DNA of 64,000 bases from a virus, in the IMG/VR virus record IMGVR_UViG_3300042397_002774, positions 64,001 through 128,000 of that record; one strand, written 5' to 3'. The notes beneath the pieces are model-generated. The model made no database searches, was not told the origin of the DNA, and saw nothing but the letters and a program-made list of their open reading frames with translations. The position numbers and the translations under genes were made by a program. Shown here one piece after another: positions 8,065 through 40,469 of the stretch (positions are counted from its first letter, which is position 1; each line of letters starts with the position of its first letter).

Positions 8065-8550
8065 TTAAAAATTCAATACACAGTAATCCATAGCAATAGT
8101 AAGGGAAATGTTAACTGCTGATTCACTAGCCCAATCGTATTCACCAAAGTTTGCTGATTTTACATAAGCACCTTTGATTATCCATTCGCTAACGATGTCA
8201 CCTACTGGACCTAATACGTTCAATACTAAATCTTTTTTATAAAAATCAGAATAACCATCACGGCCTGTTACTGATTCGTGAGCCAAACGAGCCCATTCCA
8301 TTACAGCTTGAGCACCACTTGGAGTGATTGGATCATAAAGTTCTAAGTTCATATCTTGCCACTTAACTTTACCTTTTACTTTACGGTAAACGTTGATGTG
8401 GTCTAATACGATTTCACCTGCATCAAATTGAGGTGACGCTGCCTTCTTAATCAAGTATGCTGGAATACCGTCTACATACATGATGAAACGATTCTGCACC
8501 TTTGGTTCGAAAGCGGTGAACATTATTTGGTTTGCGTCTAATACAGCCAT
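8065..8550 (-). CDS. Tail tube protein (T4 gp19-like)
   Basis: FEPKVQNRF...WQDMNLELYDPI...SEWIIKGAY..SANFGEYDW; directly follows sheath. Confidence 0.9.
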   Translation of the reverse strand: MAVLDANQIMFTAFEPKVQNRFIMYVDGIPAYLIKKAASPQFDAGEIVLDHINVYRKVKGKVKWQDMNLELYDPITPSGAQAVMEWARLAHESVTGRDGYSDFYKKDLVLNVLGPVGDIVSEWIIKGAYVKSANFGEYDWASESAVNISLTIAMDYCVLNF

Positions 8551-8596: not shown

Positions 8597-10309
8597 TTAC
8601 GCTGGGAATGTTGCCCCAGTTGGTAATACTGTGAAATCTAACACAATGAATTCTGCTGTTTTACTTGGTTGTAAATAGATTTGACCAACTAATTGGTTTC
8701 TATCGATTACATCAGGTGTGTTATTAGAATCATCCATTACCACTTTATAAGCATATAAACCTTGACGTTGTACTACTGATTCTAAGTAAGGGTTTGCAAT
8801 GCTCATAAATCTGTTTCTTGTAGCTGCTGTATTTTGTTCAAATACTAATGAACGACCTACTTGACCTAAGAAACCTTTCAAGGTAATCAACAAACGACGA
8901 ACGTTAATTCTGTCTAATGAAGTTGATTTTTTCTGTAATGTCTTTTGACCAAACGCTACAACACCTTCTCCAGGGAATGAAGCTAATGGGTTGATGTTTG
9001 TATCATATAAAGTATCACGATCTTCTTGAGATAATCTTCTTTCAGCTCTTAATACTGATCCAATTCCACCACGGTTTAAACCTGCTGGAGCGAACCATTC
9101 AGCACCTACTTGGTCGTTGAATGCGAATACACCACCCATTACTACAGATGGAGGACACCATACAGCCTTACCTAAGTTATTGCTAAACAATTGTACCCAT
9201 GGATAATATGCAGCACCATAACTTGAACCATTAGCAGCAGCCGCTGTAACAGCAGCAGCTACGTTAGCTCCATATGCTGTAGTATCGATAATTGCCATTG
9301 AATCACCTCTACCTTCACATACTGCAATTACATCATCTGAGATTGAACTTAAAGCACCAGTACCTAATGTTACACCAGGAACTAATAATAAGTTAAAGCT
9401 ATAATCATCTTTATTTGATAATAAAGTTAAAGCAGATGTGTAATCAGCAGCAGCAAATCCTTGACAGTTTGTAGCTGCCGTGTCATTTGCTTCAAAAAAT
9501 ACAGCTGTTCTGTTAGTTGCAGCTACACCACCACTAAATGAACCACTACCTGCTGCTGGTAAATAACCACCAAAAGTTGAAGTTTTATAATTACCTAAGT
9601 TATCAATTGAATCGATAGTGTTGTTTACTGTTTTAACACGTACATATGAAGAACCACCTTGGAAACTACCTGAAATTTCTACTAAGCCTTTTGAAGCATT
9701 GTAAACAGGTTTTGCATCACCTACTACACGAGAGATGAAGTTTGGTTGAGCTGGGTCTAAAGATAAGTTTGAGAATGTTTCTAGAACATTTTTGTTATTT
9801 GTGTTGTCATCACCACGACGAACTACTAATGTAAATGTACCTTTTGTACTGTTAACATTAGTTACTTCCCAACGTACGTTCTCTATTGTACCATTTGCTA
9901 AAGCACCTGATGTTTCAGAACCACTGTTGTTTGCAATATCACCCCATTGAGTAGCTTCTAAAACAAAAGAAGCAGTTGAGTTTGATGTTGCTGCTGCTGA
10001 TGAGCTAGCGTAAGTGTCGTAAGAAGAGCCACTAATAATTTTAGTTACTAACAATGAATTTCCACCATTGTTGAAATATTCTTTAGCAGCAAGTGATGTA
10101 AAATATTCATAGTAGTTACTTCCACTTTTGAATATATCACCAAAAACTGATAAATATTCACTATAAGAAGTTACAACTGTTGGGGCCATTGGGTTACCTT
10201 TAACTGTAGGACCAACAATAGCAGCTCCAACCTCTTGAATACCTCTTTGTACTAAACTCTTGTCGTTTTCGCGAGTAAAAACGCCTGGAGAGATAATTTT
10301 TTCTGCCAT
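8597..10309 (-). CDS. Tail sheath protein (T4 gp18-like)
   Basis: SPGVFTREND N-terminus; WFAPAGLNRG, RINVRRL, FEQN, PSKTAEFIVLDF. Confidence 0.95.
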   Translation of the reverse strand: MAEKIISPGVFTRENDKSLVQRGIQEVGAAIVGPTVKGNPMAPTVVTSYSEYLSVFGDIFKSGSNYYEYFTSLAAKEYFNNGGNSLLVTKIISGSSYDTYASSSAAATSNSTASFVLEATQWGDIANNSGSETSGALANGTIENVRWEVTNVNSTKGTFTLVVRRGDDNTNNKNVLETFSNLSLDPAQPNFISRVVGDAKPVYNASKGLVEISGSFQGGSSYVRVKTVNNTIDSIDNLGNYKTSTFGGYLPAAGSGSFSGGVAATNRTAVFFEANDTAATNCQGFAAADYTSALTLLSNKDDYSFNLLLVPGVTLGTGALSSISDDVIAVCEGRGDSMAIIDTTAYGANVAAAVTAAAANGSSYGAAYYPWVQLFSNNLGKAVWCPPSVVMGGVFAFNDQVGAEWFAPAGLNRGGIGSVLRAERRLSQEDRDTLYDTNINPLASFPGEGVVAFGQKTLQKKSTSLDRINVRRLLITLKGFLGQVGRSLVFEQNTAATRNRFMSIANPYLESVVQRQGLYAYKVVMDDSNNTPDVIDRNQLVGQIYLQPSKTAEFIVLDFTVLPTGATFPA

Positions 10310-12389: not shown

Positions 12390-13181
12390 TTAACAAGTTC
12401 CTTCTCCTCCTGAATAACAACACACACAATCACCTGTCCCAGTAGCTGCTAAGGTACAAGCCTCACTAGCTGAAACTGAGCTATAGCATTGGAAATTTGG
12501 ATGAGCTACTAATGAATAAGCTTTAATATAATAATTAGTATTAGCTTGAACAGTAAATGTATAAGATAATGATTGAAGAGTTGATGATGTATTGTTAAAT
12601 GGTTTAAATATTTGTTGATTGCTAATTAAAGTTCCATTAGCAGATACTTCTAAAAAACCAAATCCAGGAGCATCCCACCCATAACTAGCCCCATCAGGAT
12701 TTATTAGTCCAAAATTTGCTTGAACATAAACACTATTTCCTACCCTAACAACTGCATTCATTTGAGGTGAATATTGTGGATTTCCAAAGAACATCCCATC
12801 TAAATTATTAGCAGGATCTAATCTAAGAGCAGATCCATTAACAAAACCAAATAAATCCACATTTTGATAAGGATTTGTCTCTTGACTCATCTCAAATAAT
12901 ACTGAAGATGCTCTTAAAGGATTTAAATAATTCCAATTACAGGTTAGATTAGGAGAAGGTCCAGTAGAAAAATTAACTCCATCTTGAAAACTACTATTAG
13001 GTATAAAAGACCCATCAGGAGAATCTCCAGTGTAAACATGAACTCTATTAGCTACTTCTTGTCGAGTTAAACAACGATTTGTAGCAGGAATAGATTGACC
13101 AGCCTTTAAGCCAAGTAAATTTTCATTTACCATAGCTTGGAGTTCATTTCCTGTTATTTGAAAATTGCTGCTTCTAGCCAT
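12390..13181 (-). CDS. Putative fibre-associated (adhesin-like) protein with Cys-rich C-terminus
   Basis: Beta-rich; TAATG coupling with the upstream fibre stop; ends CVCCYSGGEGTC. Confidence 0.6.
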   Translation of the reverse strand: MARSSNFQITGNELQAMVNENLLGLKAGQSIPATNRCLTRQEVANRVHVYTGDSPDGSFIPNSSFQDGVNFSTGPSPNLTCNWNYLNPLRASSVLFEMSQETNPYQNVDLFGFVNGSALRLDPANNLDGMFFGNPQYSPQMNAVVRVGNSVYVQANFGLINPDGASYGWDAPGFGFLEVSANGTLISNQQIFKPFNNTSSTLQSLSYTFTVQANTNYYIKAYSLVAHPNFQCYSSVSASEACTLAATGTGDCVCCYSGGEGTC

Positions 13182-15619
13182 TATTTAGATTCTAATTCTT
13201 TTATTCTAGCTTCTAATTGTTGAATTGCTTTTATTAACACACCTACTGTTGATGGAACATCCATCGTATTTTTCTTTGGAGTAGATAGATCTGATGGAGT
13301 ATCTTCAGCTATAAAACCAATGTGAGGTCTATTGTCTTTATCATCCTTATAATTAAATGACACTACATTAACTTTATTTAATATATCTAAAGCATCACTT
13401 TCATAAGGAATAATATTATACTTTAAATAGCGAGAAGAAATTTGGTAGAATCCTTCAGCTTCAATAGTATTCCCACTTACTCTAATTTGTGAGTTAGTTG
13501 TGGCTCCAGTTGAGGTACCATTGCTAATTAATAAAGCATTATTTGTTGCTGGTGAAATTGCATTAAACCCAGGGCCTGTTGAACCTTGGTCGCCTTTGTC
13601 GCCTTTGAATCCTTGAAAACCTCTATCGCCTTGATCACCTTTAGTTCCTTTATCACCTTGGTCGCCTTTAGTTCCTTTATCACCTTGGTCGCCTTTAGTT
13701 CCTTTATCACCTTGGTCGCCTTTGTCGCCTTTAGTTCCTTTATCACCTTGGTCGCCTTTGTCGCCTTTAGTTCCTTTATCACCTTGGTCGCCTTTATCAC
13801 CCTTATCACCTTTTAAACCTTTATCACCTTGGTCGCCTTTATCACCCTTATCACCTTTTAAACCTATATCACCTTGGTCTCCCTTATCACCCTTATCTCC
13901 TTTAAATCCTTGATCTCCCTTGTCGCCTTTATCGCCTTTAAATCCTTGATCTCCCTTGTCGCCTTTATCACCTTTTAAACCTATATCGCCTTTGAATCCT
14001 TGAAAGCCTCTATCACCTTGGTCGCCTTTATCACCTTTTAAACCTCTATCACCTTGAGGACCAGCTACTGTTGAATTTGCACCTTGAAAGCCTTGGTCGC
14101 CTTTGTCGCCTTTGTCGCCTTTGAATCCTTGGAAGCCTCTATCGCCTTGGTCGCCTTTGTCGCCTTTGAATCCTTGGAAGCCTCTATCGCCTTGGTCGCC
14201 TTTGTCACCTTTGAATCCTTGGAAGCCTTGATCACCCTTATCTCCCTTATCACCTTTAAAGCCTTGGTCGCCTTGATCGCCTTTTAATCCTGTAGCTCCT
14301 TGAAAACCTTGAACTCCATTAGTTCCATTTGTACCTGCAATACCTTGAGGACCTGTAGCTCCTTGCGGTCCTGTATCTCCTCTATCTCCAGTTCTTGCAA
14401 ATGTAACAATTATATCTAAATCATTTGTGAATGAACTTACTCCTGATAACCATGTAATAGGTACTCCAAAATAGTTTGTATTATGGGTGTGGGCTCCAGT
14501 TATTGCAAATAAAGCAAAATTTGTTGTGCTACCTTTTTCAGTTACAGTAAAGTGTCCTTTAATTGCTGATGTTGAGTCATCAACTGTTTGTAAATAATTG
14601 TATACAGAAACACTAGCATCATCTACTTCACTTATATATAATTCTGAAGCTGATGATAATACTAAGTTATTAAATTTTAATTTTCCATTTCCAGGAATTG
14701 TGTTTGAGGTGTTTGTACTAAATGTATAATCAAAAGCAGCACCGCCAAAATTACCTGTTAAACCTTGATGGCCTTGAGGACCTTGTACTCCTTGAATACC
14801 TTGAGCTCCTGTACCTACAGCTCCTTGAATACCTTGTGGGCCTTGGTTACCTTGAGGACCAGGAATTATAGAATCATTACCTACATGACCTTGAATACCT
14901 TGAACACCAACAGGGCCTTGGATACCTTGATCACCTATAGGACCTTGATGACCTTGATCACCTTTAGCTCCTTGGTCGCCTTTTATACCTATACTACCTT
15001 GTATACCAACAGGACCTTGATCTCCTTGATCACCTTTAAACCCTTGGTCACCTTTAGTACCTTGCACACCTATACTTCCTTGCACACCAACGGGACCTTG
15101 TACACCTTGATCGCCTTTAAATCCTTGATCGCCTTTTGATCCTTGAACACCTATGCTTCCTTGTACACCGATTGGACCTTGAATACCTTGATCACCTATA
15201 CTTCCTTGATCACCTTTTACTCCTATACTTCCTTGTGCACCAATACTTCCTTGTGCACCAACCCCACCTTGAAATCCTACTGGGCCTTGAAGACCTGTAG
15301 GGCCTTGATGACCTTGGTCGCCTTTTGACCCTTGAACTCCATTTGAACCTTGTACACCTTGAGCCCCATGATCACCTTGATCACCTTTAGTACCTTGTAT
15401 ACCAATACTACCTTGAACACCAACAGGGCCTTGAAGACCTTGAGATCCTGTTGTTCCTTGAGGTCCTTGTGCACCTACAGTTCCTTGGATACCTTGAGCT
15501 CCTTGAGCACCATTTGATATTGTAATTTGATTTATACTACCACTCAATTCGGTCCAGTTATCATCCATTTCCTGCCAAGTAAGTGGACGTAAGAGGTTTG
15601 ATCTTAAAGATAAAGCCAT
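13181..15619 (-). CDS. Collagen-like fibre protein with C-terminal S74-type intramolecular chaperone, 812 aa
   Basis: N-terminal LTWQEMDDNW anchor; two long Gly-X-Y tracts; SSRYLKYNI...HIGFIAED...LIKAIQQL. Confidence 0.85.
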   Translation of the reverse strand: MALSLRSNLLRPLTWQEMDDNWTELSGSINQITISNGAQGAQGIQGTVGAQGPQGTTGSQGLQGPVGVQGSIGIQGTKGDQGDHGAQGVQGSNGVQGSKGDQGHQGPTGLQGPVGFQGGVGAQGSIGAQGSIGVKGDQGSIGDQGIQGPIGVQGSIGVQGSKGDQGFKGDQGVQGPVGVQGSIGVQGTKGDQGFKGDQGDQGPVGIQGSIGIKGDQGAKGDQGHQGPIGDQGIQGPVGVQGIQGHVGNDSIIPGPQGNQGPQGIQGAVGTGAQGIQGVQGPQGHQGLTGNFGGAAFDYTFSTNTSNTIPGNGKLKFNNLVLSSASELYISEVDDASVSVYNYLQTVDDSTSAIKGHFTVTEKGSTTNFALFAITGAHTHNTNYFGVPITWLSGVSSFTNDLDIIVTFARTGDRGDTGPQGATGPQGIAGTNGTNGVQGFQGATGLKGDQGDQGFKGDKGDKGDQGFQGFKGDKGDQGDRGFQGFKGDKGDQGDRGFQGFKGDKGDKGDQGFQGANSTVAGPQGDRGLKGDKGDQGDRGFQGFKGDIGLKGDKGDKGDQGFKGDKGDKGDQGFKGDKGDKGDQGDIGLKGDKGDKGDQGDKGLKGDKGDKGDQGDKGTKGDKGDQGDKGTKGDKGDQGDKGTKGDQGDKGTKGDQGDKGTKGDQGDRGFQGFKGDKGDQGSTGPGFNAISPATNNALLISNGTSTGATTNSQIRVSGNTIEAEGFYQISSRYLKYNIIPYESDALDILNKVNVVSFNYKDDKDNRPHIGFIAEDTPSDLSTPKKNTMDVPSTVGVLIKAIQQLEARIKELESK
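13568..14390 (-). repeat. Collagen Gly-X-Y tract rich in GDK/GDQ/GFK with 9/27/36-bp tandem units
   Basis: e.g. ccttggtcgcctttagttcctttatca repeated around 13640-13790. Confidence 0.9.
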
Positions 15620-15641
15620 AATTATTTTTTAATTTGTCACG

Positions 15642-15649
15642 TATAAATA
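15642..15649 (-). promoter_or_regulatory. Putative late promoter motif
   Basis: ATATTTATA upstream of 15619 start. Confidence 0.6.
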
Positions 15650-15650
15650 T

Positions 15651-15677
15651 GAAAGGGGATGATTGCTCACCCCCTTC
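15651..15677 (-). terminator. Probable intrinsic terminator
   Basis: AAGGGGGTGA/TCATCCCCTT stem followed by short T-run on minus strand. Confidence 0.55.
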
Positions 15678-15701
15678 TAAAAATATATATTAATATTTTA
15701 A

Positions 15702-16166
15702 TTAACAGTCTTCGTAGCTACCAGTACCGAATACTTCAGCAACTTTTTCTTTCAATTTAGCATAACCAAATTCAAAGATATTTGCTTCTTCTACTTCAGT
15801 AAAATCTGGAATCATTACAGTAACGCTTTCAGAAACTGTAGTTTCTACGTTAGTATAAGTAATACTTCCTGATGCATCTACACTTTGAGAAGGTACATTT
15901 ACTGTTCTGTAAACAACACTTTCAGATGGAACTCTTAAATCAACATATAAGTTATCACCAATTTGTTGGTTACGAGCTATTGTTCCCATTCCTCCAGGAC
16001 CTGGGTACAAATTAGATGCTGATGTTGCTGATTCTGCGTCTAAAAATAATTGAGTTTGAAAATTAGCAAATCCACCTTTCTGAATTTGGTAATTTGTAAT
16101 ACGAAGGTATGCTTCGCTTGTGATACCTAAATCAGTACCAATTTGAGTTGTAATTCTAATTGCCAT
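15702..16166 (-). CDS. Hypothetical fibre-associated protein, 154 aa (start re-called to MAIRITTQ)
   Basis: Motif at 16190 lies just upstream of ATG 16166; the longer start overlaps the neighbouring gene. Confidence 0.65.
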   Translation of the reverse strand: MAIRITTQIGTDLGITSEAYLRITNYQIQKGGFANFQTQLFLDAESATSASNLYPGPGGMGTIARNQQIGDNLYVDLRVPSESVVYRTVNVPSQSVDASGSITYTNVETTVSESVTVMIPDFTEVEEANIFEFGYAKLKEKVAEVFGTGSYEDC

Positions 16167-16189
16167 TGTTGTATAGTTGTTTTTACGTG

Positions 16190-16197
16190 AATAAATA
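16190..16197 (-). promoter_or_regulatory. Putative late promoter motif
   Basis: ATATTTATT upstream of 16166. Confidence 0.55.
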
Positions 16198-16788
16198 TTA
16201 GCGATAATGTTCTCCCCCAAGCCATAATACAAAAGATCTACGAGTTCCTACAGTTACTGGTGAAACGCGGTGCATCATATATGAAGGAAATATAACTACT
16301 GTGCCTCTGCCACGAGGAGCTGTGATATGCCCTTTACCTCCTTGCCAAATATCTAAATCTCCACCCTCATATTCGCTAGGATCGGATAATTGGACCGTAA
16401 TAGACACTTTACGGAGCGATAACATCCCAGGCCCAATGTCTTGATGCCAGATGTAATGCCCTCCTTCTGAAGCGTAGTATTCAGTGTATTGTATTTGTTC
16501 TGGGGCTGAATGTAGGTCAAAATCCCATAAAGATTTATTAGCTTCAGCAGCCATATCCATTAATTTACCATATAGCCAATTCCATTTCATATTTTGTGGA
16601 ATCCATTTAATAGATGATGAGCGAGCTTCTTTATTATCACCACCAATTGTGGTAGCTTGAACAAAGTCAATCTCAGCAACATCTTTGTAAATTTTGTCTA
16701 GTTCTTCATTATTAAAACCTTTATCAAAATAATAATAATTTTGAAGATCAACGTGTTTTTTAGAAAATAAATAGCCTGTTTGTACCAT
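16198..16788 (-). CDS. 2OG-Fe(II) oxygenase (PKHD/prolyl-hydroxylase-like)
   Basis: YIWHQD (HxD), RKVSITVQLS..SEYEGGDL, FPSYMMHRVSPVTVGTRRSFVLW. Confidence 0.9.
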   Translation of the reverse strand: MVQTGYLFSKKHVDLQNYYYFDKGFNNEELDKIYKDVAEIDFVQATTIGGDNKEARSSSIKWIPQNMKWNWLYGKLMDMAAEANKSLWDFDLHSAPEQIQYTEYYASEGGHYIWHQDIGPGMLSLRKVSITVQLSDPSEYEGGDLDIWQGGKGHITAPRGRGTVVIFPSYMMHRVSPVTVGTRRSFVLWLGGEHYR

Positions 16789-16797
16789 TTTTATATT

Positions 16798-17370
16798 TTA
16801 TTCTGTTTCGAAAATATTCATTTTACTTGAGTATGGCTCTTCAGCCCATAAATTTATAGCAATTGCTCTTCTAGTTCCTGTTAAAACAGTATCAACTCTA
16901 TGAGGCACTTTTCCAGCATCGAAAATAATTAAACGATTTGGCCTACACAATATAATATCAGGAGAGTTAGATTCACCATCAGTATAAACATTTAATGCAC
17001 CTCCAGTAAATTCTGATCCTATTGGATAGTATACACATCCAATTGTAGGTGTCATTCTATCTCCTGTAGCTTTTCTATATGCAACATCATCATCATAATG
17101 CATTTCTAGATAATTTCTAAATCTCCCATTAGGATCTGCTTCTTGAACACCTGTCCAATATTCAAATCCATCAATTGTATATAGTTTATTAAGTGGGCAA
17201 TTATTTCGCCAAATATATTCTATTAACTTCTTTTTAACAGTGTTTACTTCATCATTCCACCACCCTTTCCAATAATAATACACACCAGGATCTTGAAAGA
17301 AAGTGGTATCATTTGTAATCTCATCTAATAATGTTTGATCTGTTATAAAATCATCAAATACTGTTATCAT
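16798..17370 (-). CDS. 2OG-Fe(II) oxygenase
   Basis: MHYD (HxD), FTGGAL, NRLIIFDAGKVPHRV...GTRRAIAINLW. Confidence 0.85.
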   Translation of the reverse strand: MITVFDDFITDQTLLDEITNDTTFFQDPGVYYYWKGWWNDEVNTVKKKLIEYIWRNNCPLNKLYTIDGFEYWTGVQEADPNGRFRNYLEMHYDDDVAYRKATGDRMTPTIGCVYYPIGSEFTGGALNVYTDGESNSPDIILCRPNRLIIFDAGKVPHRVDTVLTGTRRAIAINLWAEEPYSSKMNIFETE

Positions 17371-17374
17371 TTTG

Positions 17375-19198
17375 TTATTGTTGTGGGTTATAAATATAAT
17401 TTACATATCCTTCATCTTTACCAAATCTACTTTCAACCCATAGTGGATGTGATGGATTTTCTTTGTAAGCCCAATCTTCTTTTCCTAATTCTTCAAAACG
17501 TTTAGCTATTCTTTCGTTGTAATGATACATAATTGTTCTTACTCTACGTTGAATATCTGCACGAGATAAATCATGGGTATTTTGACCTGTATGGTTGTTG
17601 TAAATGAATTGGATGTAACCAATTTTATTTATTTTACAAATTTTGGTGTGTAAAAATGTTCTAACTATTAATTCATAATCATCAGCAATCGCTAAATCTC
17701 TATTATGTCCACCAACAGCAAAATATGTATCTCTTCTCCAAGCACGAACGTGATTTGGAACACCAACAATATGTCTGATTGTTTTAGGGTTAATGTTTTG
17801 TGTAATTACAACATCCCATTCAAATCCTCTATATTTTTCTTTTCTATATTTACCATATCCAAAAGCAAATCCATCATCATATGTTAACGATTCCCAATTT
17901 TCATCTATTTCTACACTATCATTAAAGAAGAAACCAGCATCTGGGTGTGCTATTGAAGCATTGATTAGATCCATTGTACAATTGTCTGTTAATAAATCAT
18001 CATGATCTAATTCTGCTAATAAGAATCCTCTTGTTAAACAAGCGGCTCTGTATTTTGATTCTCCAATAATACCTCCTGTTTTTTCTCTAAAATCATATAC
18101 TTTTACTCTTGGATCTCGTTTAGCAATTTCTTCTGCTATTTTAAGTGTTTTACCACCATCAGATGAATCGTTAACCATTACCCATTCCCAATCTTGATAA
18201 GTTTGTTCAAGCAGTGAACGATAAGTATTCCATAATTTATTTCCAGTATTATATATTGGTGTAAAATATGATACTAAATGTTCATTTGATGCTGTTAGCA
18301 TTTGATTCATAGCTACATTGTAAGCTATATCTCCATTTTCAACATCATCTTTTTCAACATTTAACCATTTTTTTCTTACCTCTAAAGGTTGATTAGTTAA
18401 ATTAGTAAATTCTGAAAAATGTTTTCCAATAGTGATAATTGAATCTGGTTTAAAAGATGTTAATAGTTCTTCTATATTGTAATCATTTGAAATATTTAAT
18501 ACATCTAAACTTACGTCTTCATATCCTAAATGTTTAGTACTTTCTAATTTTGCTGTACCACCTACATAAAGTACTTTAGGTACTCTTGCTTTTTTCTCTT
18601 TTGTTAAGTAATTGTAATAACAAAGTTCTGAATGAATAAAATGAAATTTATCTGAAAATTGTTTATATAGATTTTCAATAAATACACCATCACCACAATA
18701 TCCACCTTCATATCTACCTTGTGTATATAAACTTTGTTTGATAACATATTGAGCGGAGTCTATGTGTCTTAGCTTCATATGTTCAGGGCCTACTTTTCTA
18801 ACATCTAGGCCTGTAAAATCCTTCTTATTAACAAACTGCTCATAAACAAAAGCATCTTTATCAGGATTAGATTCAATTTCTGATTTGATAGTATTATAGA
18901 AGTCAGGATGGACAATATTATCATCATCCAATATTACTATATAAGTGTCTTTATGTAATTTATCAATAATATCACTTAATTGAGGATACAAATAATCAGA
19001 TCCATCTCCTTTTATAAAGTGAAATCTAGTATTTGGACTTTGTAACTCATTCAACATTTCAGCATCAATGTCTTTTAATGTTGTTGTATCAAAGATAATA
19101 TGCCAAACTACATTTATCGGACTTGGAAATACCGATTTTTTTATTGTCAATAAGTTTTGCTGACGCGTACAACGCGTTAATATATGTAATGTTACCAT
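17375..19198 (-). CDS. Two-domain GT-A/GT2 glycosyltransferase
   Basis: N-domain with ILDDDN; C-domain VSYFTPIYN...QTYQDWEWVMVNDSSD...ELDHDD...DDYELIVR. Confidence 0.9.
   Translation of the reverse strand: MVTLHILTRCTRQQNLLTIKKSVFPSPINVVWHIIFDTTTLKDIDAEMLNELQSPNTRFHFIKGDGSDYLYPQLSDIIDKLHKDTYIVILDDDNIVHPDFYNTIKSEIESNPDKDAFVYEQFVNKKDFTGLDVRKVGPEHMKLRHIDSAQYVIKQSLYTQGRYEGGYCGDGVFIENLYKQFSDKFHFIHSELCYYNYLTKEKKARVPKVLYVGGTAKLESTKHLGYEDVSLDVLNISNDYNIEELLTSFKPDSIITIGKHFSEFTNLTNQPLEVRKKWLNVEKDDVENGDIAYNVAMNQMLTASNEHLVSYFTPIYNTGNKLWNTYRSLLEQTYQDWEWVMVNDSSDGGKTLKIAEEIAKRDPRVKVYDFREKTGGIIGESKYRAACLTRGFLLAELDHDDLLTDNCTMDLINASIAHPDAGFFFNDSVEIDENWESLTYDDGFAFGYGKYRKEKYRGFEWDVVITQNINPKTIRHIVGVPNHVRAWRRDTYFAVGGHNRDLAIADDYELIVRTFLHTKICKINKIGYIQFIYNNHTGQNTHDLSRADIQRRVRTIMYHYNERIAKRFEELGKEDWAYKENPSHPLWVESRFGKDEGYVNYIYNPQQ
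17389..17396 (-). promoter_or_regulatory. Putative late promoter motif inside the 3' end of the GT gene
   Basis: ATATTTATA ~19 nt upstream of 17370 start. Confidence 0.4.
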
Positions 19199-20127
19199 TC
19201 TACGTCAAAGAAAAATAGGTGAAAGAATCTTGCATTTTCGATTGCATCTCCAAAATAACCTGTTGCTGCGTGGATTGTTTTTGAATCAAACATAACCAAT
19301 CTATTATAAACGTTTGCAACAGTATCTACTACTTCATATGTTGTTGAATCATAAAAATTCATATTGTTACTTAGCCCTTTGAAGGTATTAAAATAATCAT
19401 CACCTCTTGTTTCATCAAACCTAGTAGCACCTGTAATTTTGCTTTTATATGTGGCTGTACCTGTTTGAAGTGGGGCATCTGGTGTTAAGTACACCATTGC
19501 TGCATATGTTTGAGAATCAACATGGTAAACGATTGGATCTTGAGAAGTACAATATTGGAAAACACCATTTGCATATGATTCATAATTCCAATTTGTAATT
19601 TTTTTACCTAAAATTTCTTCAAATTTTTCTTTAGTACCATTTAAGATAAATCTGTCGTAACTACGTTTTCCTTTATGATAACCTGATTCTTTAAATTCTA
19701 AATTATTCATAGCATAATTTCTAACCCAATCAGGGTCACTATAGAAATTATCTACTACAACAATACCTTTTTTAGATACAGGGTCAAACCCTGAATGGTA
19801 AACTACCCATTTTTCAAATGTGTCTATGTTATTTACAACAGAGTTGTCTTGTAAGATAAGACTAACAGGTTTATTTAATTCCTGTTTTGTAAGAAGGATT
19901 TTAAATCCAATTTCTTCTGTTGGAATTTGAGGATAAAATTCCTTCACATCTGGTCTTGATTCAAATCCAGGAGAAATAATTTCCTCACCAATTAGAAATG
20001 CTTTAATAGGTTGTATTGGGTGAGATATCCACCCACTAATAGTACAAACATCGTTATTAATGACAACTTTGTCAATGTACCACAATACACCATCAACGTT
20101 GGTTAAATGATTAATATGATCGGCCAT
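19192..20127 (-). CDS. 2OG-Fe(II) oxygenase-like protein (DUF6445-like) with N-terminal accessory domain
   Basis: VVVDNFYSDPDWVR, YHVD (HxD), VYLTP, NRLVMFDSKTIHAA; N-terminal SGW...RPDV...GF module. Confidence 0.75.
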   Translation of the reverse strand: MADHINHLTNVDGVLWYIDKVVINNDVCTISGWISHPIQPIKAFLIGEEIISPGFESRPDVKEFYPQIPTEEIGFKILLTKQELNKPVSLILQDNSVVNNIDTFEKWVVYHSGFDPVSKKGIVVVDNFYSDPDWVRNYAMNNLEFKESGYHKGKRSYDRFILNGTKEKFEEILGKKITNWNYESYANGVFQYCTSQDPIVYHVDSQTYAAMVYLTPDAPLQTGTATYKSKITGATRFDETRGDDYFNTFKGLSNNMNFYDSTTYEVVDTVANVYNRLVMFDSKTIHAATGYFGDAIENARFFHLFFFDVEW

Positions 20128-20144
20128 AAAAGTAATTATTTTAT

Positions 20145-20176
20145 GGAATATACGATGAAACTATTTGATATCCAAA
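20145..20176 (-). promoter_or_regulatory. Host (Bacteroidota sigma-A)-like promoter of the modification cassette
   Basis: TTTG-N20-TATATTCC, resembling TTTG-N19-21-TANNTTTG with two mismatches; no ATATTTAT motif here. Confidence 0.4.
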
Positions 20177-20177
20177 T

Positions 20178-23100
20178 TTATTTATTATCTACTAGATAAT
20201 TTATTTGATTTTTTAGATCTTCGATTTGTTGTTGTTGTTCTTTCATACCCTCTACTAACAAAGCTACAAGTTTTTCATACTTAATAGTCTTGTATGTTTC
20301 AGACATTTCTGGTATAAAATCTTTAGCTTCATCTGGGTCATTACTCGGAGTATTTAATTGTGATTGATACTCAGTAATAAATAAAGGTTCTACAGCTTCA
20401 ACTTCTTGTGCAATAAGACCAATATCTTTAGTACCTGCTCTTTCTTTTACAATGTTTACTTTTTCATCATTCCATGTATAAGTAACACCTCTAAGTTGTT
20501 TAATTTTATTTATTGCATTATCAATTGTAATAATATCTTTCTTAAGTCTAGCATCTGAGTAATAGGCAATAACATCACCTGTTGCATATAAAGTACCTGT
20601 TATAACTACACCATCACTAGCTGTTCTAAATTTTTCATTACCGTTATTGTATAGGTATTGAGCAGCATCTACATATGTAAGTATTGACCAGTTATTTAAC
20701 CAAAATCCTGTAGGCCCAGACGCACCATTTGTATGCATCATTAGACACATACCACCATCTACTCTCCAACCAGAATATCCGTTATTACTACCACCCATAT
20801 ACCATGAAGTATATGAACTTGTATTTCTATGTAAGTATTTATTATTATCATTATAATCATAAAAGGTTCCAGCATACATTCCAGCACCTGTTAACCAGTT
20901 ACCAGAATCATCACACCAAGATCCCCAACTACTTGATTGATTTAAGAAACCAATTCGATTTGAGTTACAATGAAGTTCTCTAGTACCTTCATCACTATCA
21001 GTCATATAAATTGATGATGCATTTGTACCTAATCCTACAGTTAGATTACCATACATGTATGAATGTCTAGATGAATCTAATCTAATACCCCAAGAACCAG
21101 CATTATTTAGTATTCCAACATTATTACCTGTATCAGCATAAAAGCATCCTCTAACAGCACTACCATAACCACCAGGTCTCATATTAAGCTGTATCCAAGA
21201 ACCATTAGATGTAGCAAAATTCCACTCACCAGTAGATGATGCATAAAAATGGGTATCAAGGGCGGTGTTATATAAACCTGAGCCAGAATTCTGATTTCTA
21301 AACCAACCATTATTGTATACGTTTGCAAATGTTGGACCACTATCGGTTCTAACTTCTTGGTTCATATTTGCAGCATTTGGATCTGACGCTGTGTTTAATA
21401 ATCTTCTCCAAGAAGTCCATGAAGTTCTACCATGGTTTGCTTCAGACCTAACCCAAAGATTTGTTCCAGTTCCACCATCATAATGTCCACCAAGTTGATA
21501 CATATTATAACCATTGTAACCAGACCATGTAATAACATGATTCCAACCACCACTACCTGTATAACTAGGGTGCATAAAATCAACTCTTAATCCTCCACCT
21601 GCTAAACCTTGATCTACTAAATTAACAGGAGTTTCAGAAGTTAAATAACTACCATATTCATAATAAGCTCTAAGATATTGACCGCTTGTGTCTTTTCTTG
21701 AAAAAGAAGATGCGTGTAAACTATCTACTGTATCTGCATTTGATACAGATTGAGATCCTATATTGCCAGAGTCAATTACATCATGCCAAGTACCAGAACC
21801 TCTATATTGCTTAAATCTACCTTCTGCCCAAAAGTTACCACCACCATTAGCATAGTAATCACCGTTTGTAATAATGCGGTAGTTAGTATTAATAGCCTGA
21901 CCAACACTTAAATAATCAGCATGTATGTGGTATACTCTAGAAGTACTATTTGGGTCTACATAATATCCTGTATCTTGTTTATCATAAAATATATTAGCAC
22001 GGATATCATTTGTGTTAATCTGGCTTCCATCATTAACTGTTAATTGAGCATTAAAATAGAAGTTTGATCTATCAGTATATATATGAGCATGACCGCTATT
22101 AGCTGGTCCAAACCAAATATAACCGGAGTCCGTATAAAATCTTACACCCCATGTACCGTCTCCAGTAAATCTTCCACTGTTTGTTGAAGTGCCAAATCTA
22201 ACTGTATGTAATACAGATGTACCATTAGGATCTGCATAATAAGCTGTGTCTTGTGAATCATAAAATATAGGAGCTCTTACAGAATCTACACCTTGCAAAT
22301 AATTTGCATAAGCATAACCTACAATATTACCATTAACCATAAAAGCTAATGGGTGGTTGGAATAAGTACCTATTCTACCAACTCCTTGACCTGTATGAGA
22401 ATACATTGTAGTAATAATTCCATCACTATTACTTTTAACATCAAGTCTAGCATGACTAGAACCTGTTAAATTTAATCTAGCATTCCATCCTCCATCATTA
22501 GATGCATTTACATCACCCACAGAAAGATGTCTTAACCAGGAAGTGCTTGCAAAATCTCCATAATATGTACTATCATTTCCATCATAAATTATATTAGCAT
22601 ATATAGTACCAGCATATGTTGTAGAATCTAAATAAATTGTATTTCCTACAGGATTTAATCTTAATGCTTGTCCTGAATGAGATTGGACATAGGAATATGA
22701 ACCATTATTACCTATTGATATTGTAAAGTTATTTACACTACCTGGGTTTGTAGTGCCTCTTAAAAATCTACTATCAGCATCTGATGTGCTATATGTGTAT
22801 GAAGTATAGTTACCTGAATGTAATAATGTTCTTGATGTTGATCCATCATAAAAAGCTCCTCCACCATATATATATGTACTACCAGTTCCTTTAATATATG
22901 TACCTAACCCACTGTTACCATTGTACCCAAAAGAATCAGACTGGCCAGAAAAGTTAATTGCTGTACCACTAGATACTGTGGTAATAATACCAGACATAGT
23001 ACCTCCAGAAAGAGGCAATGCATATGATGAATAGTTACCTGCGTGTAATACTATATTACCATTGTATGTCATATTCCCAGTATTGGGAATAATAAAATCT

Positions 23101-24569
23101 GTACCACCTGTAGTAGTAATACGCATTCTGTTACCAGATTGCATTCTAAACCAACTATCAGTACCATCAAAATCTATTAATGCACGACCTATTGTAGCAC
23201 TTGTACTAAATGTAACAGCTGTAGATGTACTAGCCCCTCTAGCAGTAACAGTAGCTAATGTATCAACATAAACATTTGGACCTGCTGCACCTTGTGCACC
23301 AGTATTACCTTGAGGACCTGCTACTGATGAAGCAGCACCAGTATTACCTTGTGCACCAGTAGCGCCTTGTGCACCCGTTGCACCTTGGGCTCCATTTGAA
23401 CCATTAGTTCCGTTTGTACCAGCTGTGCCTTGTAAGCCTGTCGCTCCTTGAGCTCCATTAGTACCATTAGTTCCGTTTGTACCAGCTGTGCCTTGGTCGC
23501 CTTTAAAGCCTTGGAAGCCTCTGTCACCTTGGTCTCCTTTGAATCCTCTGTCGCCTTGATCGCCTTTGAAGCCTTGAAAGCCTCTATCGCCTTGAAAACC
23601 TTGAGATCCTTTATCACCTTGAGAACCTTGACGTCCTTGATCGCCTTGAGCGCCTTGTCTTCCTTGATCACCTTGGAAACCTTGGAAACCCCTAACTCCC
23701 TGATCGCCTTGAAAGCCTCTAGGGCCTTGATCGCCTTGATTTCCTTGAGAACCAGTTGCACCTTGTGCACCAGTACTACCTTGAGCACCTGTAGAACCTT
23801 GGATACCTTGAACAGACATATCTGTTGTAAATGACCAAGTTCCTCCACTACGTAAATACAATTTACCATAGTCAGGATCTGATTGTGAAAGTGAGCCTCC
23901 TACTAATCCGAATTGACCTTCGGGGCAAGTATTGTCTGCTAATAATGCAGCTACTGAGTTGTATGTTTGATAGATTGTGAATCCTTGGCCTGTTATGCCT
24001 TGATAACCTTGGTCGCCTTTAGCACCTTGAGGTCCTGTAGAACCTTGTGCACCGACTGTGCCTTGAATGCCTTGTGGGCCTTGATTTCCTTGATCACCTT
24101 TAGCACCTTGGAAACCTTGATCGCCTTGGTCACCCTTAGCGCCCTGAATGCCTTGATCGCCTTGATATCCCTGATCGCCTTGGAAGCCTTGTATTCCTTG
24201 GTCACCTTGGGCTCCTTGAATGCCTTGGTCGCCTTGGAAACCTTGGTCGCCTTGAAAGCCTTGATCACCTTTAGTACCCTGAATGCCTTGAAATCCTTGG
24301 TCACCCTTAGTGCCTTGACGTCCCTGATCACCTTGAGCTCCATCAGCTCCAACATAACCATCTTGTCCTTGAAAACCTTGGATGCCTTGTGGGCCTTGTG
24401 GACCTTGGTTACCCTGTGATCCTCTTGAAGTATAGTATATCTCCTTAGTACTTTCATTAAGTACTAAATATTTGTCTAATGAACCTGATGTGTCTTGGGG
24501 AACTACAGGTAGTCTAAAACTACCTGATACTTCTAATGAACCTGTAACTGACGCGTTGTGTATTCTCAT
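20178..24569 (-). CDS. Collagen-like fibre with beta-rich distal domains and S74 chaperone, 1463 aa
   Basis: Gly-X-Y tracts at ~23280-24420; repeated IFYD..DT.YY.DPN.TS modules; YSDARLKKDI...IGLIAQEV...LLVEGMKEQQ. Confidence 0.85.
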   Translation of the reverse strand: MRIHNASVTGSLEVSGSFRLPVVPQDTSGSLDKYLVLNESTKEIYYTSRGSQGNQGPQGPQGIQGFQGQDGYVGADGAQGDQGRQGTKGDQGFQGIQGTKGDQGFQGDQGFQGDQGIQGAQGDQGIQGFQGDQGYQGDQGIQGAKGDQGDQGFQGAKGDQGNQGPQGIQGTVGAQGSTGPQGAKGDQGYQGITGQGFTIYQTYNSVAALLADNTCPEGQFGLVGGSLSQSDPDYGKLYLRSGGTWSFTTDMSVQGIQGSTGAQGSTGAQGATGSQGNQGDQGPRGFQGDQGVRGFQGFQGDQGRQGAQGDQGRQGSQGDKGSQGFQGDRGFQGFKGDQGDRGFKGDQGDRGFQGFKGDQGTAGTNGTNGTNGAQGATGLQGTAGTNGTNGSNGAQGATGAQGATGAQGNTGAASSVAGPQGNTGAQGAAGPNVYVDTLATVTARGASTSTAVTFSTSATIGRALIDFDGTDSWFRMQSGNRMRITTTGGTDFIIPNTGNMTYNGNIVLHAGNYSSYALPLSGGTMSGIITTVSSGTAINFSGQSDSFGYNGNSGLGTYIKGTGSTYIYGGGAFYDGSTSRTLLHSGNYTSYTYSTSDADSRFLRGTTNPGSVNNFTISIGNNGSYSYVQSHSGQALRLNPVGNTIYLDSTTYAGTIYANIIYDGNDSTYYGDFASTSWLRHLSVGDVNASNDGGWNARLNLTGSSHARLDVKSNSDGIITTMYSHTGQGVGRIGTYSNHPLAFMVNGNIVGYAYANYLQGVDSVRAPIFYDSQDTAYYADPNGTSVLHTVRFGTSTNSGRFTGDGTWGVRFYTDSGYIWFGPANSGHAHIYTDRSNFYFNAQLTVNDGSQINTNDIRANIFYDKQDTGYYVDPNSTSRVYHIHADYLSVGQAINTNYRIITNGDYYANGGGNFWAEGRFKQYRGSGTWHDVIDSGNIGSQSVSNADTVDSLHASSFSRKDTSGQYLRAYYEYGSYLTSETPVNLVDQGLAGGGLRVDFMHPSYTGSGGWNHVITWSGYNGYNMYQLGGHYDGGTGTNLWVRSEANHGRTSWTSWRRLLNTASDPNAANMNQEVRTDSGPTFANVYNNGWFRNQNSGSGLYNTALDTHFYASSTGEWNFATSNGSWIQLNMRPGGYGSAVRGCFYADTGNNVGILNNAGSWGIRLDSSRHSYMYGNLTVGLGTNASSIYMTDSDEGTRELHCNSNRIGFLNQSSSWGSWCDDSGNWLTGAGMYAGTFYDYNDNNKYLHRNTSSYTSWYMGGSNNGYSGWRVDGGMCLMMHTNGASGPTGFWLNNWSILTYVDAAQYLYNNGNEKFRTASDGVVITGTLYATGDVIAYYSDARLKKDIITIDNAINKIKQLRGVTYTWNDEKVNIVKERAGTKDIGLIAQEVEAVEPLFITEYQSQLNTPSNDPDEAKDFIPEMSETYKTIKYEKLVALLVEGMKEQQQQIEDLKNQINYLVDNK

Positions 24570-24648: not shown

Positions 24649-25029
24649 TTAACAGATGTATGAACAATACCCAACAACACTTCCTGGGGTTCCGTTACTA
24701 AAGGAAACAATTTCTGCATTAAGATTAAATGTTCCATTAAGTGGGGTAGAACCAATACTATTACCTCTTAACCACCTACCTGTAGTTGTTTGGTAAACAG
24801 TTATAACCTCATTACAACCACAATACCAATCACCAAATGATTGATATGAATCTAATGCTGTAGCTGTTACACCATTCATAGATTCTGATGAATATCCATA
24901 AAATTCACTCATAGCATCTGGTGTTGAGAAACCAGCAGCCGCGCTTAGTGTTCTAAGACTGTTTGAACTAGATCCTAATTCGGTTTTTATTTGTGATATG
25001 CTTATTGCTCCTGATGATTGTAGTGCCAT
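24649..25029 (-). CDS. Small fibre-tip-associated protein
   Basis: MALQSSGAISISQIKTELG...MSEFYG N-terminus typical of fibre-distal partners; Cys-containing C-terminus. Confidence 0.65.
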   Translation of the reverse strand: MALQSSGAISISQIKTELGSSSNSLRTLSAAAGFSTPDAMSEFYGYSSESMNGVTATALDSYQSFGDWYCGCNEVITVYQTTTGRWLRGNSIGSTPLNGTFNLNAEIVSFSNGTPGSVVGYCSYIC

Positions 25030-25315: not shown

Positions 25316-25762
25316 TTATTTAATTCTTGTTAAAACTGATGAAGTCATAGTTACTGTGTGTTCAACTAATACATTAAAATAAAAGGTACCACTATCTCCT
25401 GATGTGTTATTAAATTGTAAATAATTATGATCTACATTACTAGGATTTTGATAATTGGAGCATGAATATCCTCCCCAATCAGATTCTAATATATTAGAGT
25501 AAGAGGTTCCATATCTAGATGTTGTAAAACTAAATATACCAAAGGTCCAAGATGTAGCTGATCTTACTGCCATAAAATATACAGTACCTATCATTCTAAC
25601 ATATCCTGTTAGGTTACCTATTAAGTTAATAGAAGAGCCATTTGAAATAAATGAATTTCCAGCATATTCAAGCATTGCATAATTACCATTAGTATGTATT
25701 ATATTTGAACTAATAGAATTAGCACTTAATGTTGGTGCAGTTGTTGCTTGTAAATTTGCCAT
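25316..25762 (-). CDS. Paralogous fibre-associated protein C, 148 aa
   Basis: MANLQATT...TSSVLTRIK. Confidence 0.7.
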   Translation of the reverse strand: MANLQATTAPTLSANSISSNIIHTNGNYAMLEYAGNSFISNGSSINLIGNLTGYVRMIGTVYFMAVRSATSWTFGIFSFTTSRYGTSYSNILESDWGGYSCSNYQNPSNVDHNYLQFNNTSGDSGTFYFNVLVEHTVTMTSSVLTRIK

Positions 25763-25763
25763 T

Positions 25764-26237
25764 TTATCTTATTCTTTCTGTTAAATATGATGATGAAAAA
25801 GATGCTCCACCTAACCCAGTCCATCTTACATTAAAATAATAATTTCCATTTCCCCATTCAGTATTTACGGTGTTCGTAAATCTAATAAAATTTGTTCCAT
25901 AACTTGGATTATGTCTTGATAATGAAAAATATCCAGACGAATCAGTTAATATAGAAGTACTTAAACCATATTCTGATAATTGAAAATAGAATTGTCCAGT
26001 TTGAAATTGAGATTGATTTACCCACCATCTAACAATCCCATACATCCTTTCATGAGCACCCACATTAGCAAACAAATCAACATAATTGGTTGCACTATTA
26101 ACGGAACTTGGTATAAAAGCAGTACCTACAAATTCTCTTAAAACTTGTGAAGAATTTGTATGTAAAATTTTTGGGGATTGGTAACTTGTTGTAGCAGTTA
26201 ATGTACCATTTACTGTTGTAGCTTGTAAAGTTGCCAT
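25764..26237 (-). CDS. Paralogous fibre-associated protein B, 157 aa
   Basis: MATLQATT...SSSYLTERIR. Confidence 0.7.
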   Translation of the reverse strand: MATLQATTVNGTLTATTSYQSPKILHTNSSQVLREFVGTAFIPSSVNSATNYVDLFANVGAHERMYGIVRWWVNQSQFQTGQFYFQLSEYGLSTSILTDSSGYFSLSRHNPSYGTNFIRFTNTVNTEWGNGNYYFNVRWTGLGGASFSSSYLTERIR

Positions 26238-26238
26238 A

Positions 26239-26706
26239 TTAGTTAATTCTTGTTAAAACTGATGAAGTTATACTATTCTTAGAGTTTCCAGTAAAGGCAG
26301 TTACATTTACATGATAGTTTCCAAAAGCCCAAGGGGCATTATAGTTATTAGTTATTCTTAAATAAGAATTATTTCCACTTGTCCATGTTGAAACTCCCAT
26401 CAACCCATCCCAAGTTACACCAGTAGCAATTTTTAACCCATATAAGGATAATGCAAACCAAAAATCATGAGCTGTATTATAAGATTGGTTTGCAGGGATA
26501 GATACATATCCATTTATCCATGCATATCCATTTGTATTTACAAGTATATCAGCATAATTATTTACTGGGTCAACATTTGGGGTTTGTATACCTACATATC
26601 CAGCCCATTGTTGAATACTACTTGTAGATTCATTTAATACAGTACTAGCAGAAATAGATGTTGTAGCATTAAATGTTGTTACTGTAGTTGTTTGGAGATT
26701 AGCCAT
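26239..26706 (-). CDS. Paralogous fibre-associated protein A, 155 aa
   Basis: MANLQTTT...TSSVLTRIN; translationally coupled to the upstream fibre. Confidence 0.7.
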   Translation of the reverse strand: MANLQTTTVTTFNATTSISASTVLNESTSSIQQWAGYVGIQTPNVDPVNNYADILVNTNGYAWINGYVSIPANQSYNTAHDFWFALSLYGLKIATGVTWDGLMGVSTWTSGNNSYLRITNNYNAPWAFGNYHVNVTAFTGNSKNSITSSVLTRIN

Positions 26707-29700: not shown

Positions 29701-30005
29701 GAACCTGCCGCACCTTGAGAACCAGTTGCACCTTGAGGACCAACTGCAGCAACACCATTTACCAAAATTGAACCTGATATATTTACTGAACCAGTAAATT
29801 GATGTGTATCATCAGCACTATCACCAAACTTTGTTGAGCCTGATGTATATAGTATTGATGATGATACTATTTCTGAATGGTATTCTTGTGCAGTTAATCT
29901 ACCTTGTACGGTTAAATCTCCTGTTAATGAACCTGATCCTGAAACTGCAATGTCACCAGCTGCAGTTAATAGAGATGCAAGGATTGTATTTTTACTTTTG
30001 GCCAT
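26706..30005 (-). CDS. Fibre protein with short collagen tract, [10 protein letters not shown] repeats and S74 chaperone, 1099 aa
   Basis: About eight G(N/D)(V/I)G(I/V/M)(G/N)T.(S/T/D)P repeats; [10 protein letters not shown]...LGLIAEEV...LIEAIKDL. Confidence 0.85.
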
Positions 30006-40409: not shown

Positions 40410-40469
40410 AAGCGCTCAATATTTTTAAGTATATACTTGCACCTTGCGGTGACCTATCTATCAGGCATA

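Follow-up and report, generated by a model that had tools for sequence, protein, structure and literature searches.

Possible fibre glycosylation by a mobile oxygenase-glycosyltransferase module encoded among collagen-like fibre genes of an uncultured aquatic phage

What are three putative oxygenases and a glycosyltransferase (GT) doing in a row of collagen-like fibre genes? The question is raised by a 64,000-nucleotide stretch (the window) covering bases 64001-128000 of IMG/VR virus record IMGVR_UViG_3300042397_002774, an uncultured aquatic virus of 160,926 bp that was judged 94% complete. Few unexplained auxiliary genes are commoner in marine and freshwater phages than those encoding 2-oxoglutarate (2OG)- and Fe(II)-dependent oxygenases and prolyl 4-hydroxylase (P4H)-like proteins, whose use "remains cryptic" (PMC9301287). 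A preliminary description of the window reported five Gly-X-Y fibre genes with a four-gene cassette (ox3, GT, ox2, and ox1) between two of them, and our gene calls agree with it (Table 1); it also proposed that the cassette matures the phage's own fibres in the way that animal collagen is matured. Genomic context and predicted folds point, tentatively, to a related answer, that the cassette could well be a late-expressed, mobile glycosylation module decorating the collagen-like fibres. We infer the fibres as its substrate, as well as the modified residue and the added sugars.

Sequence comparison identifies the conserved, mobile core of the cassette as a predicted DUF6445 2OG-Fe(II) oxygenase (ox3) translationally coupled to a putatively bifunctional GT with two GT-A domains, the ox3 stop and the GT start overlapping by 7 nt. 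An N-terminal beta-sandwich (residues 1-110) precedes the DUF6445/Syn9 gp52-family oxygenase domain (residues 115-311) of ox3, and the structure model (predicted local distance difference test score, pLDDT, of 91) likewise has a beta-sandwich followed by a double-stranded beta-helix domain. The H202/D204/H286 triad and the 2OG-binding R300 were invariant in 32 homologues; triad, basic residue, and fold place ox3 in the 2OG-Fe(II) oxygenase superfamily. Its membership of the DUF6445/Syn9 gp52 family was also seen in a tblastn comparison with Syn9 gp52 (27.5% identity, E 3e-7), and residues 115-310 are 24.7-45% identical to Syn9 gp52 and its relatives. The preliminary description had counted three HxD...H oxygenases in the cassette. 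All three do carry the triad, but ox3 is a DUF6445 protein with the 2OG oxygenase fold and has no Pfam 2OG-FeII_Oxy match.

The closest fold neighbours of ox3 were OGFOD1 (Z 13.7), Trichoplax PHD (12.9), PPHD (12.3), Tpa1 (12.0), PHD2 (12.0), and Dictyostelium PhyA (11.8). Further down came the sugar-tailoring enzymes HygX and AviO1 (about 11.3), vCPH (11.0), mimivirus L230 (10.2), and LH3 (9.4), with some 25 other oxygenases ranking above the lysyl hydroxylases (LH). Structural neighbours also included EvdO, which is an oligosaccharide orthoester synthase like HygX and AviO1, HalB/D, and BesD, as well as ALKBH and NgTET1 (Z about 9-10). The modeled catalytic domain is therefore generically protein-prolyl-hydroxylase-like; because the Z differences are small, the fold identifies a hydroxylase-like class and does not reveal the substrate. 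Sequence searches against the PDB gave no match for ox2 or ox3, Pfam and PDB sequence searches gave no LH or PLOD match to ox3, and a structure-atlas search with the beta-sandwich (residues 1-112) returned no usable match.

In the GT model (pLDDT 87), a small alpha/beta linker joins the two GT-A domains. Both DXD motifs, D91-D92-D93 and D398-H399-D400-D401, were invariant in 30 homologues, and with its Rossmann-like fold the protein has the hallmarks of GT-A/GT2 enzymes; the preliminary description had read it as a dual GT-A enzyme. The best matches of the GT were chondroitin and heparosan polymerases. Only one structure matched it over its full length, K4CP, a chondroitin polymerase with two domains (Foldseek E 6e-22; Z 23.8 for residues 1-589). 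Sequence similarity to such polymerases was restricted to one domain (E 2e-8), and the C-terminal domain matched PmHS2, WrtF, and SpsA at Z 20-23. Among the top Foldseek/VIA matches, lists that were dominated by generic GT-A enzymes, PLOD/LH3 and COLGALT1 did not appear. The modeled dual architecture would suit an enzyme that adds two different sugars as well as one that polymerizes a repeating disaccharide.

All five fibres carry uninterrupted G-X-Y runs and a C-terminal S74 domain, and each matched both Pfam Collagen (E 3.5e-15 to 9e-86) and Peptidase_S74 (2e-11 to 9e-16). Counting only triplets within runs of at least five, we found 654, with GDQ, GAQ, GFQ, GDK, and GPQ being most frequent. 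Gln (345, 53%), Lys (92, 14%), and Thr (61) prevailed at Y, and Asp (140), Ala (116), Phe (83), Thr (66), and Pro (62) at X. The composition reported earlier, with mostly Gln or Lys at Y and Pro nearly always at X, was thus confirmed. Pro stood at Y in one triplet against the 62 at X, and the Y-position Pro on which collagen prolyl 4-hydroxylase acts is thereby practically missing from these fibres.

Across related phages the core pair keeps company with such fibres. Searching IMG/VR with the ox3 alignment yielded 280 relatives, from which 80 loci were kept (ox3 identity 49-99%); dereplication at 90% ox3 identity left 48 clusters, and in 32 of them the locus extends at least 3 kb upstream. The GT followed ox3 immediately in 78 of the 80 loci. 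A collagen-like open reading frame (ORF) with G-X-Y repeats lay within 10 kb in 29 of the 32 dereplicated loci and ended less than 300 bp before ox3 in 13 of them, and three or four tandem fibre genes were common. Six near relatives (GT identity 83-98%) share the gene order of the window and are too close to be informative. Metagenomes were rich in ox3 and GT homologues at 50-60% identity; a megablast search of 50,697 phage records gave no match to the cassette, and a scan of bacterial and archaeal contigs with two ox3 motifs found no relative, its reach being limited by the patterns used. In related loci, small GT2s, larger GTs, and methyltransferases are inserted between or after the core genes, which makes these loci look like variable glycan-building clusters. 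The cultured Synechococcus phage DSL-LC02 has an ox3 domain of 45% identity, accompanied by a mannosyltransferase and an FkbM methyltransferase and inserted between genes annotated as 'collagen-like protein' and tail fibre.

This pairing does not simply follow the phage backbone. The nearest cultured relative of the window phage is Flavobacterium phage vB_FspM_immuto, with a capsid protein 58% identical. Among 26 records picked by capsid similarity (50-64% identity, immuto included), DUF6445 was present in only one, a close relative; the other 25 lacked ox3, and the complete 162-kb G010 and cultured immuto have neither module nor collagen. The capsids of module-bearing G029 (256 kb, complete) and G027 are just 25-28% identical to that of the window phage, and module-bearing G030 (114 kb, complete), G028, and G031 gave no capsid match; in these capsid-distant genomes ox3 and the GT are 48-58% identical to those of the window, and ox3 is immediately preceded by collagen ORFs in G030, G029, and G028. 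Inherited synteny as the sole explanation of the adjacency was rejected in view of these distant-capsid carriers and the module-free closer relatives, since inherited gene order does not suffice when module phages have capsids 25-28% identical or undetectable while relatives at 50-64% lack the module. The module thus appears, perhaps along with fibre genes, to move between phage backbones and to end up next to collagen-like fibres.

The expression context of the cassette was read from a recurrent octamer, ATATTTAT, with 27 copies on the gene strand against two on the opposite one. The octamer stands 24-46 nt before the starts of the sheath, tube, portal, and terminase genes, fibres A, B, and C, ox2 (27 nt upstream), and P0007, and is a candidate late promoter that resembles the T4 late TATAAATA. 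Neither ATATTTAT nor a terminator was found in the interval between fibre B and ox3, and a scan for sigma-70 promoters stayed at chance level (70 found, 71 expected). A strong GC-rich hairpin with a T-rich tail follows P0007, and a second one precedes fibre E. Both hairpins are placed just ahead of a ATATTTAT motif, and the two sites look like terminator-promoter junctions that would split the fibre genes into separate late units. We infer from this layout that the cassette is transcribed together with the late structural genes, a context that a virion substrate would fit better than early host takeover.

The two remaining oxygenases appear to be accessory. Both have the P4H-type catalytic domain (PF13640/P4Hc) of the 2OG-Fe(II) superfamily, with H91/D93/H157 and the basic R168 in ox2 and H115/D117/H173, R183, and S185 in ox1, whose triad is conserved at 95% or more in 34 homologues. 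Among solved structures, ox1 comes closest to the PKHD-type hydroxylases Sbal_3634 and PiuC, and a Phytophthora P4H also matched it, at E 0.004; the literature found for PiuC and PKHD dealt with antibiotic resistance alone and named no substrate. While ox2 is restricted to the closest relatives, ox1 is present in about half of the 80 loci and in 20 of the 32 dereplicated ones. Fibres in loci with ox1 had a median of 16% Pro at X, against 3% without it (p = 0.03, uncorrected for phylogeny), a weak correlation compatible with ox1 being a prolyl hydroxylase.

Fusion proteins in the wider DUF6445/Syn9 gp52 family carry the association beyond the window. A profile search over 1.8 billion representatives found 2317 DUF6445 relatives, and in many long ones the DUF6445 domain is C-terminal. 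Seven of ten long relatives examined fuse it to GT2, GT17, GT47, or RXYLT1, with FkbM methyltransferase and TPR domains. Because DUF6445-GT fusions recur, the coupling of oxygenase and GT seems to be general; two of the fused proteins are encoded on contigs below 5 kb. No paper on DUF6445 or the ox3-GT module was found in the literature library searched. The gp52-family oxygenases are named 'minor coat protein' in RefSeq cyanophage records NC_008296 (Syn9 gp52), NC_015287, NC_006883, and others, and in phrog_1644. This name is doubtful because the fold is that of an oxygenase, and the label looks like a propagated misannotation.

Under a fibre-glycosylation reading, the collagen-like, S74-capped tail fibres would be made in the cytoplasm, where one or more of the oxygenases would hydroxylate fibre side chains or tailor a sugar and the double GT would add at least two sugars, possibly as a repeating disaccharide chain. 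The accessory ox1 and ox2 would act as P4H-superfamily hydroxylases, ox1 perhaps on X-position Pro, and the outcome would be a glycan coat on the fibres. On a broader scale it is possible, if more speculative, that phage-specific, mobile hydroxylase-GT modules, with optional P4H-like oxygenases, methyltransferases, and extra GTs, build variable fibre glycans in hundreds of aquatic phage lineages.

Several observations weigh against fibre glycosylation. The loci are not phylogenetically independent samples, some ox3 homologues (L058, L083) stand alone without GT or collagen, and the capsid relatives G003 and G007 have collagen fibres and no module, so the cassette is optional. The co-occurrence check across related phages that the preliminary description called for was favourable for the core pair and collagen-like fibres in most loci and at distant capsids, with these two genomes running counter to it. 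The collagen neighbourhood is not universal in the family either: in cyanophage S-SSM7 a 30%-identical homologue sits inside a nucleotide-sugar/GT lipopolysaccharide ('LPS') cluster far from the fibres, and the S-SCSM2R homologue, which is fused to TPR, has a GH130-like gene as its neighbour. Ser/Thr is the only residue type common to all module-adjacent G-X-Y tracts, and because the tracts share nothing else, a single conserved hydroxylation target within the repeat is not evident. Lastly, T4-like marine phages keep fibre and accessory 'moron' genes in common hypervariable host-recognition regions (PMC7029224); because the two share such regions, adjacency is possible without a substrate relation.

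This last point is the starting position of the main rival, in which the GT and oxygenases remodel the host cell surface, changing LPS, capsule, or envelope glycans, for example to block superinfection or to keep progeny from sticking to debris, and their location among fibres merely reflects accessory genes collecting in the host-recognition region. Papers on pelagimyophages and cyanophages read GTs in a fibre-containing host-recognition cluster in this way (PMC7029224, PMC12801897), and the S-SSM7 homologue is in keeping with it. So are the nearest GT families, which are polysaccharide and teichoic-acid enzymes (K4CP, PmHS2, TarP, RmlT, TuaG, WcaA), and the extra GTs and methyltransferases of related loci, which recall O-antigen clusters. 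However, the module tracks collagen-like fibres specifically across unrelated backbones, the promoter pattern of the cassette is late/structural and not early, and the cassette has no noticeable flippase, polymerase, or membrane component. Protein hydroxylases are the nearest fold neighbours of ox3, and the TPR fusions suggest protein substrates. We consider host-surface remodelling unlikely on balance, while regarding it as the most serious competitor.

A strict procollagen-like pathway, the form in which the preliminary description cast its proposal, fares worse. Here Y-position Lys would be hydroxylated and would receive Gal-Glc, X-position Pro would be 3-hydroxylated, and the S74 domain would play the part of the C-propeptide. 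The window fibres themselves would suit it, with their share of Lys at Y and with Pro nearly confined to X; LH3 and L230 have the same domain set of an oxygenase and two GT-A domains, the LH domains of both are detectable structural neighbours of ox3, and mimivirus offers a precedent (PMC5802723, PMC9546862). Partner fibres elsewhere do not bear this out. Many of those accompanying the ox3-GT pair contain no Lys, no Pro, or neither: Lys at Y ranges from 0 to 40% (0% beside many homologues, including L023, L026, L035, L042, L047, and L053), and Pro at X from 0 to 64%. Several partner fibres are essentially (G-T-S)n or (G-S-S)n of up to 537 triplets. Neither Y-Lys hydroxylation followed by Glc-Gal addition nor X-Pro 3-hydroxylation is upheld by these compositions, and ox3 gave no LH/PLOD sequence match in Pfam or the PDB, none of the oxygenases shows clearly specific LH similarity, and LH stands well down the ox3 fold ranking, while the GT is polymerase-like and PLOD/COLGALT1 are absent from its top matches. 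What survives of the earlier proposal is the more general idea that the enzymes serve the phage's own fibres, for which intact motifs, position in the fibre array, and co-occurrence of the core pair speak; the animal Lys/Pro chemistry does not, and we regard the strict pathway as improbable.

Comparably improbable is that the oxygenases act on a nucleotide sugar, secondary metabolite, or free amino acid, with the GT in the same small-molecule pathway. The Syn9 gp52 family to which ox3 belongs was proposed to serve metabolite biosynthesis (Iyer et al. 2010, PMC2938197), and HygX, AviO1, EvdO, HalB/D, and BesD among its structural neighbours, the halogenase-like genes of locus L080, and the oxygenase-like array of L045/L046 agree with that proposal. 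It leaves the recurrent post-fibre position and the late structural context unexplained, and the window's cassette has no halogenase or nonribosomal peptide synthetase-like gene.

In some phages, pairs of an oxygenase and a GT modify DNA. Hypermodification of DNA in this style (TET/JBP plus GT), to which the ALKBH and NgTET1 fold matches might point, or hydroxylation of a host translation factor, suggested by OGFOD1 and PPHD among the top matches, is nevertheless very improbable here, given that TET and AlkB rank below protein hydroxylases, that a polymerase-like dual GT is atypical for DNA glycosylation, and that the genes lie among fibres and have relatives fused to sugar methyltransferase, TPR, and multiple GT families.

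Fibre glycosylation, in our reading, has partial precedents. Mimivirus L230, like human LH3 (PLOD3) with COLGALT1, combines a 2OG oxygenase with two GT-A domains and is encoded by a virus with collagen-like virion proteins; here the enzymes are separate genes without sequence-level LH similarity, the GT is K4CP-like, many partner fibres are free of Lys, the host is bacterial, and assembly is cytoplasmic. In Dictyostelium Skp1, where the P4H PhyA acts before GTs, and with vCPH of PBCV-1, a glycosylation site on a cytoplasmic protein is made by, or goes together with, a hydroxylase of the PHD/P4H type, although kinship with ox3 is at the superfamily level only and some partner fibres have no Pro. 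In mycobacteriophage virion glycosylation (Freeman et al. 2023, cited in PMC12619734) and with the chlorovirus A064R-type multi-domain GT/methyltransferase, virus-encoded GTs beside structural genes glycosylate virion proteins, as we propose here, and the methyltransferases and extra GTs of related module loci add to the likeness; the mycobacteriophage system targets C-termini of capsid and tail-tube proteins and involves no oxygenase, unlike the collagen-like fibres and 2OG oxygenase considered here.

Closer in sequence is Syn9 gp52, together with the host recognition cluster of cyanophages and pelagimyophages, which shares the homologous ox3 domain and in which GTs among fibre genes have been noted (PMC7029224). 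The ox3 subfamily differs in its extra N-terminal beta-sandwich, obligate dual-GT partner, and collagen-fibre neighbourhood, and the earlier papers propose metabolite synthesis or LPS modification, not fibre modification (PMC2938197, PMC7029224). Closest in concept are the bacterial 2OGFeDO/sulfotransferase operons of Iyer, Abhiman, de Souza & Aravind (2010, PMC2938197), for which gene neighbourhoods predicted that prokaryotic collagen-like/tail-collar proteins are hydroxylated and then modified; those involve beta-hydroxylase/PhyH families and sulfotransferases in bacteria, whereas here DUF6445 and GTs occur in phages. Collagen-like hydroxylase/sulfotransferase operons, mimivirus L230, and mycobacteriophage virion glycosylation are thus already known.

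Table 1. Positions of the features treated in the text, in window coordinates (aa, amino acids; nt, nucleotides).
Feature	Position	Strand	Description
Tail tube	8065-8550	-	
Tail sheath	8597-10309	-	
Fibre A	13181-15619	-	812 aa; 172 triplets, richest in GDK; S74; Pfam Collagen + Peptidase_S74
Hairpin	15677-15652	-	Strong, GC-rich, T-rich tail; after P0007
Conserved protein (P0007 read from its ATG)	15702-16166	-	154 aa; own ATATTTAT motif; 9 related ORFs
ox1	16198-16788	-	PF13640/PKHD (YbiX, PiuC)-like 2OG-Fe(II) oxygenase; 51.5 bits, E 2e-13
ox2	16798-17370	-	Small PF13640 2OG-Fe(II) oxygenase; 29.5 bits against cut-off 27, E 1.5e-6
GT	17375-19198	-	607 aa; two GT-A domains; PF00535 in two stretches, 3e-20
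ox3	19192-20127	-	PF20043 DUF6445, 49 bits against cut-off 24, E 1e-12
Fibre B	20178-24569	-	1463 aa; 107 triplets; S74; Pfam Collagen + Peptidase_S74; ATATTTAT 33 nt upstream
Small protein	24649-25029	-	Conserved N-terminal motif
Paralogue 1	25316-25762	-	About 150 aa
Paralogue 2	25764-26237	-	About 150 aa
Paralogue 3	26239-26706	-	About 150 aa
Fibre C	26706-30005	-	1099 aa; 38 triplets; S74; Collagen 3.5e-15, S74 2e-12
Fibre D	30068-34921	-	1617 aa; 134 triplets; S74; Collagen 5e-60, S74 2e-13
Fibre E	34992-40409	-	1805 aa; 203 triplets; C-terminal S74 chaperone; Collagen 9e-86, S74 9e-16
Hairpin	about 40440-40462	-	Strong, GC-rich, T-rich tail; before fibre E
Major capsid protein	47519-49111	-	
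Portal	56505-58367	-	
Terminase	58401-59978	-	
ATATTTAT sites	6956, 8003, 8581, 10355, 11703, 15650, 16198, 17397, and others	-	Candidate late promoter
ATATTTAT sites, continued	24602, 30033/30039, 41912, 46728, 56503, 58399, 60002, and others	-	Candidate late promoter

All genes treated here lie on the minus strand. In that direction the terminase, portal, and major capsid protein genes are followed by fibres E, D, and C (40409 to 26706), five small genes (26706 to 24649), fibre B, the cassette (20127 to 16198), the conserved 154-aa gene, fibre A, several small genes, and the tail sheath and tube genes. The three tandem paralogues between fibres C and B are 31-35% identical to one another and had no match in a Pfam search; they may be fibre-associated assembly or adaptor proteins. 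The small protein at 24649-25029 starts with the motif M-x-L-x-S-S-G-x-I/L-S-I/L-S-Q-I and has relatives directly after fibre genes in 15 related ORFs, among them L012 8832-9392, L045 141-1130, and L080 1114-2154. P0007-type 154-aa proteins accompany the module in nine related ORFs (e.g., L080 5174-5677), and a family search with P0007 found no match.

Some related loci have settings of their own. In L080 (2923-4452, 5678-7183) the ox3-GT core lies beside two FAD-dependent halogenase-like genes, and in L045/L046 (3292-8724) within an array of five or six small oxygenase-like ORFs; these oxygenase-rich settings echo the Syn9 tandem dioxygenase cluster of Iyer et al. 2010. In a distant module phage (L008/L009; JGI 3300045627, a 243-kb contig), genes for HSP20, DnaJ, ribosomal protein S21, PhoH, RNase HII, and UvdE lie just downstream. 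The most extreme 'collagen-like' fibres, almost wholly G-T-S/G-S-S, S74-capped and without Pro, Lys, or Gln, were found in L042 (3-5249 and 5276-8824), L053 (4575-8120), L043, and L092; any collagen triple helix in such fibres is putative.

The pairing of a mobile DUF6445 oxygenase and a dual GT beside collagen-like fibres offers a concrete, testable substrate hypothesis. If true, no pathway for the post-translational modification of collagen would have been described earlier from bacterial viruses; the abundant 'P4H/2OG oxygenase' auxiliary metabolic genes of aquatic viromes would gain a function, and phage host recognition or fibre protection would involve an additional layer of glycans. If the fibres are glycosylated, their sequence alone would not suffice to predict host range, the glycans could shield them from proteases or receptor decoys, and the chemistry of collagen modification, present in animals and giant viruses, would reach bacteriophages as well. 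The enzymes may also provide tools for decorating recombinant bacterial collagens.

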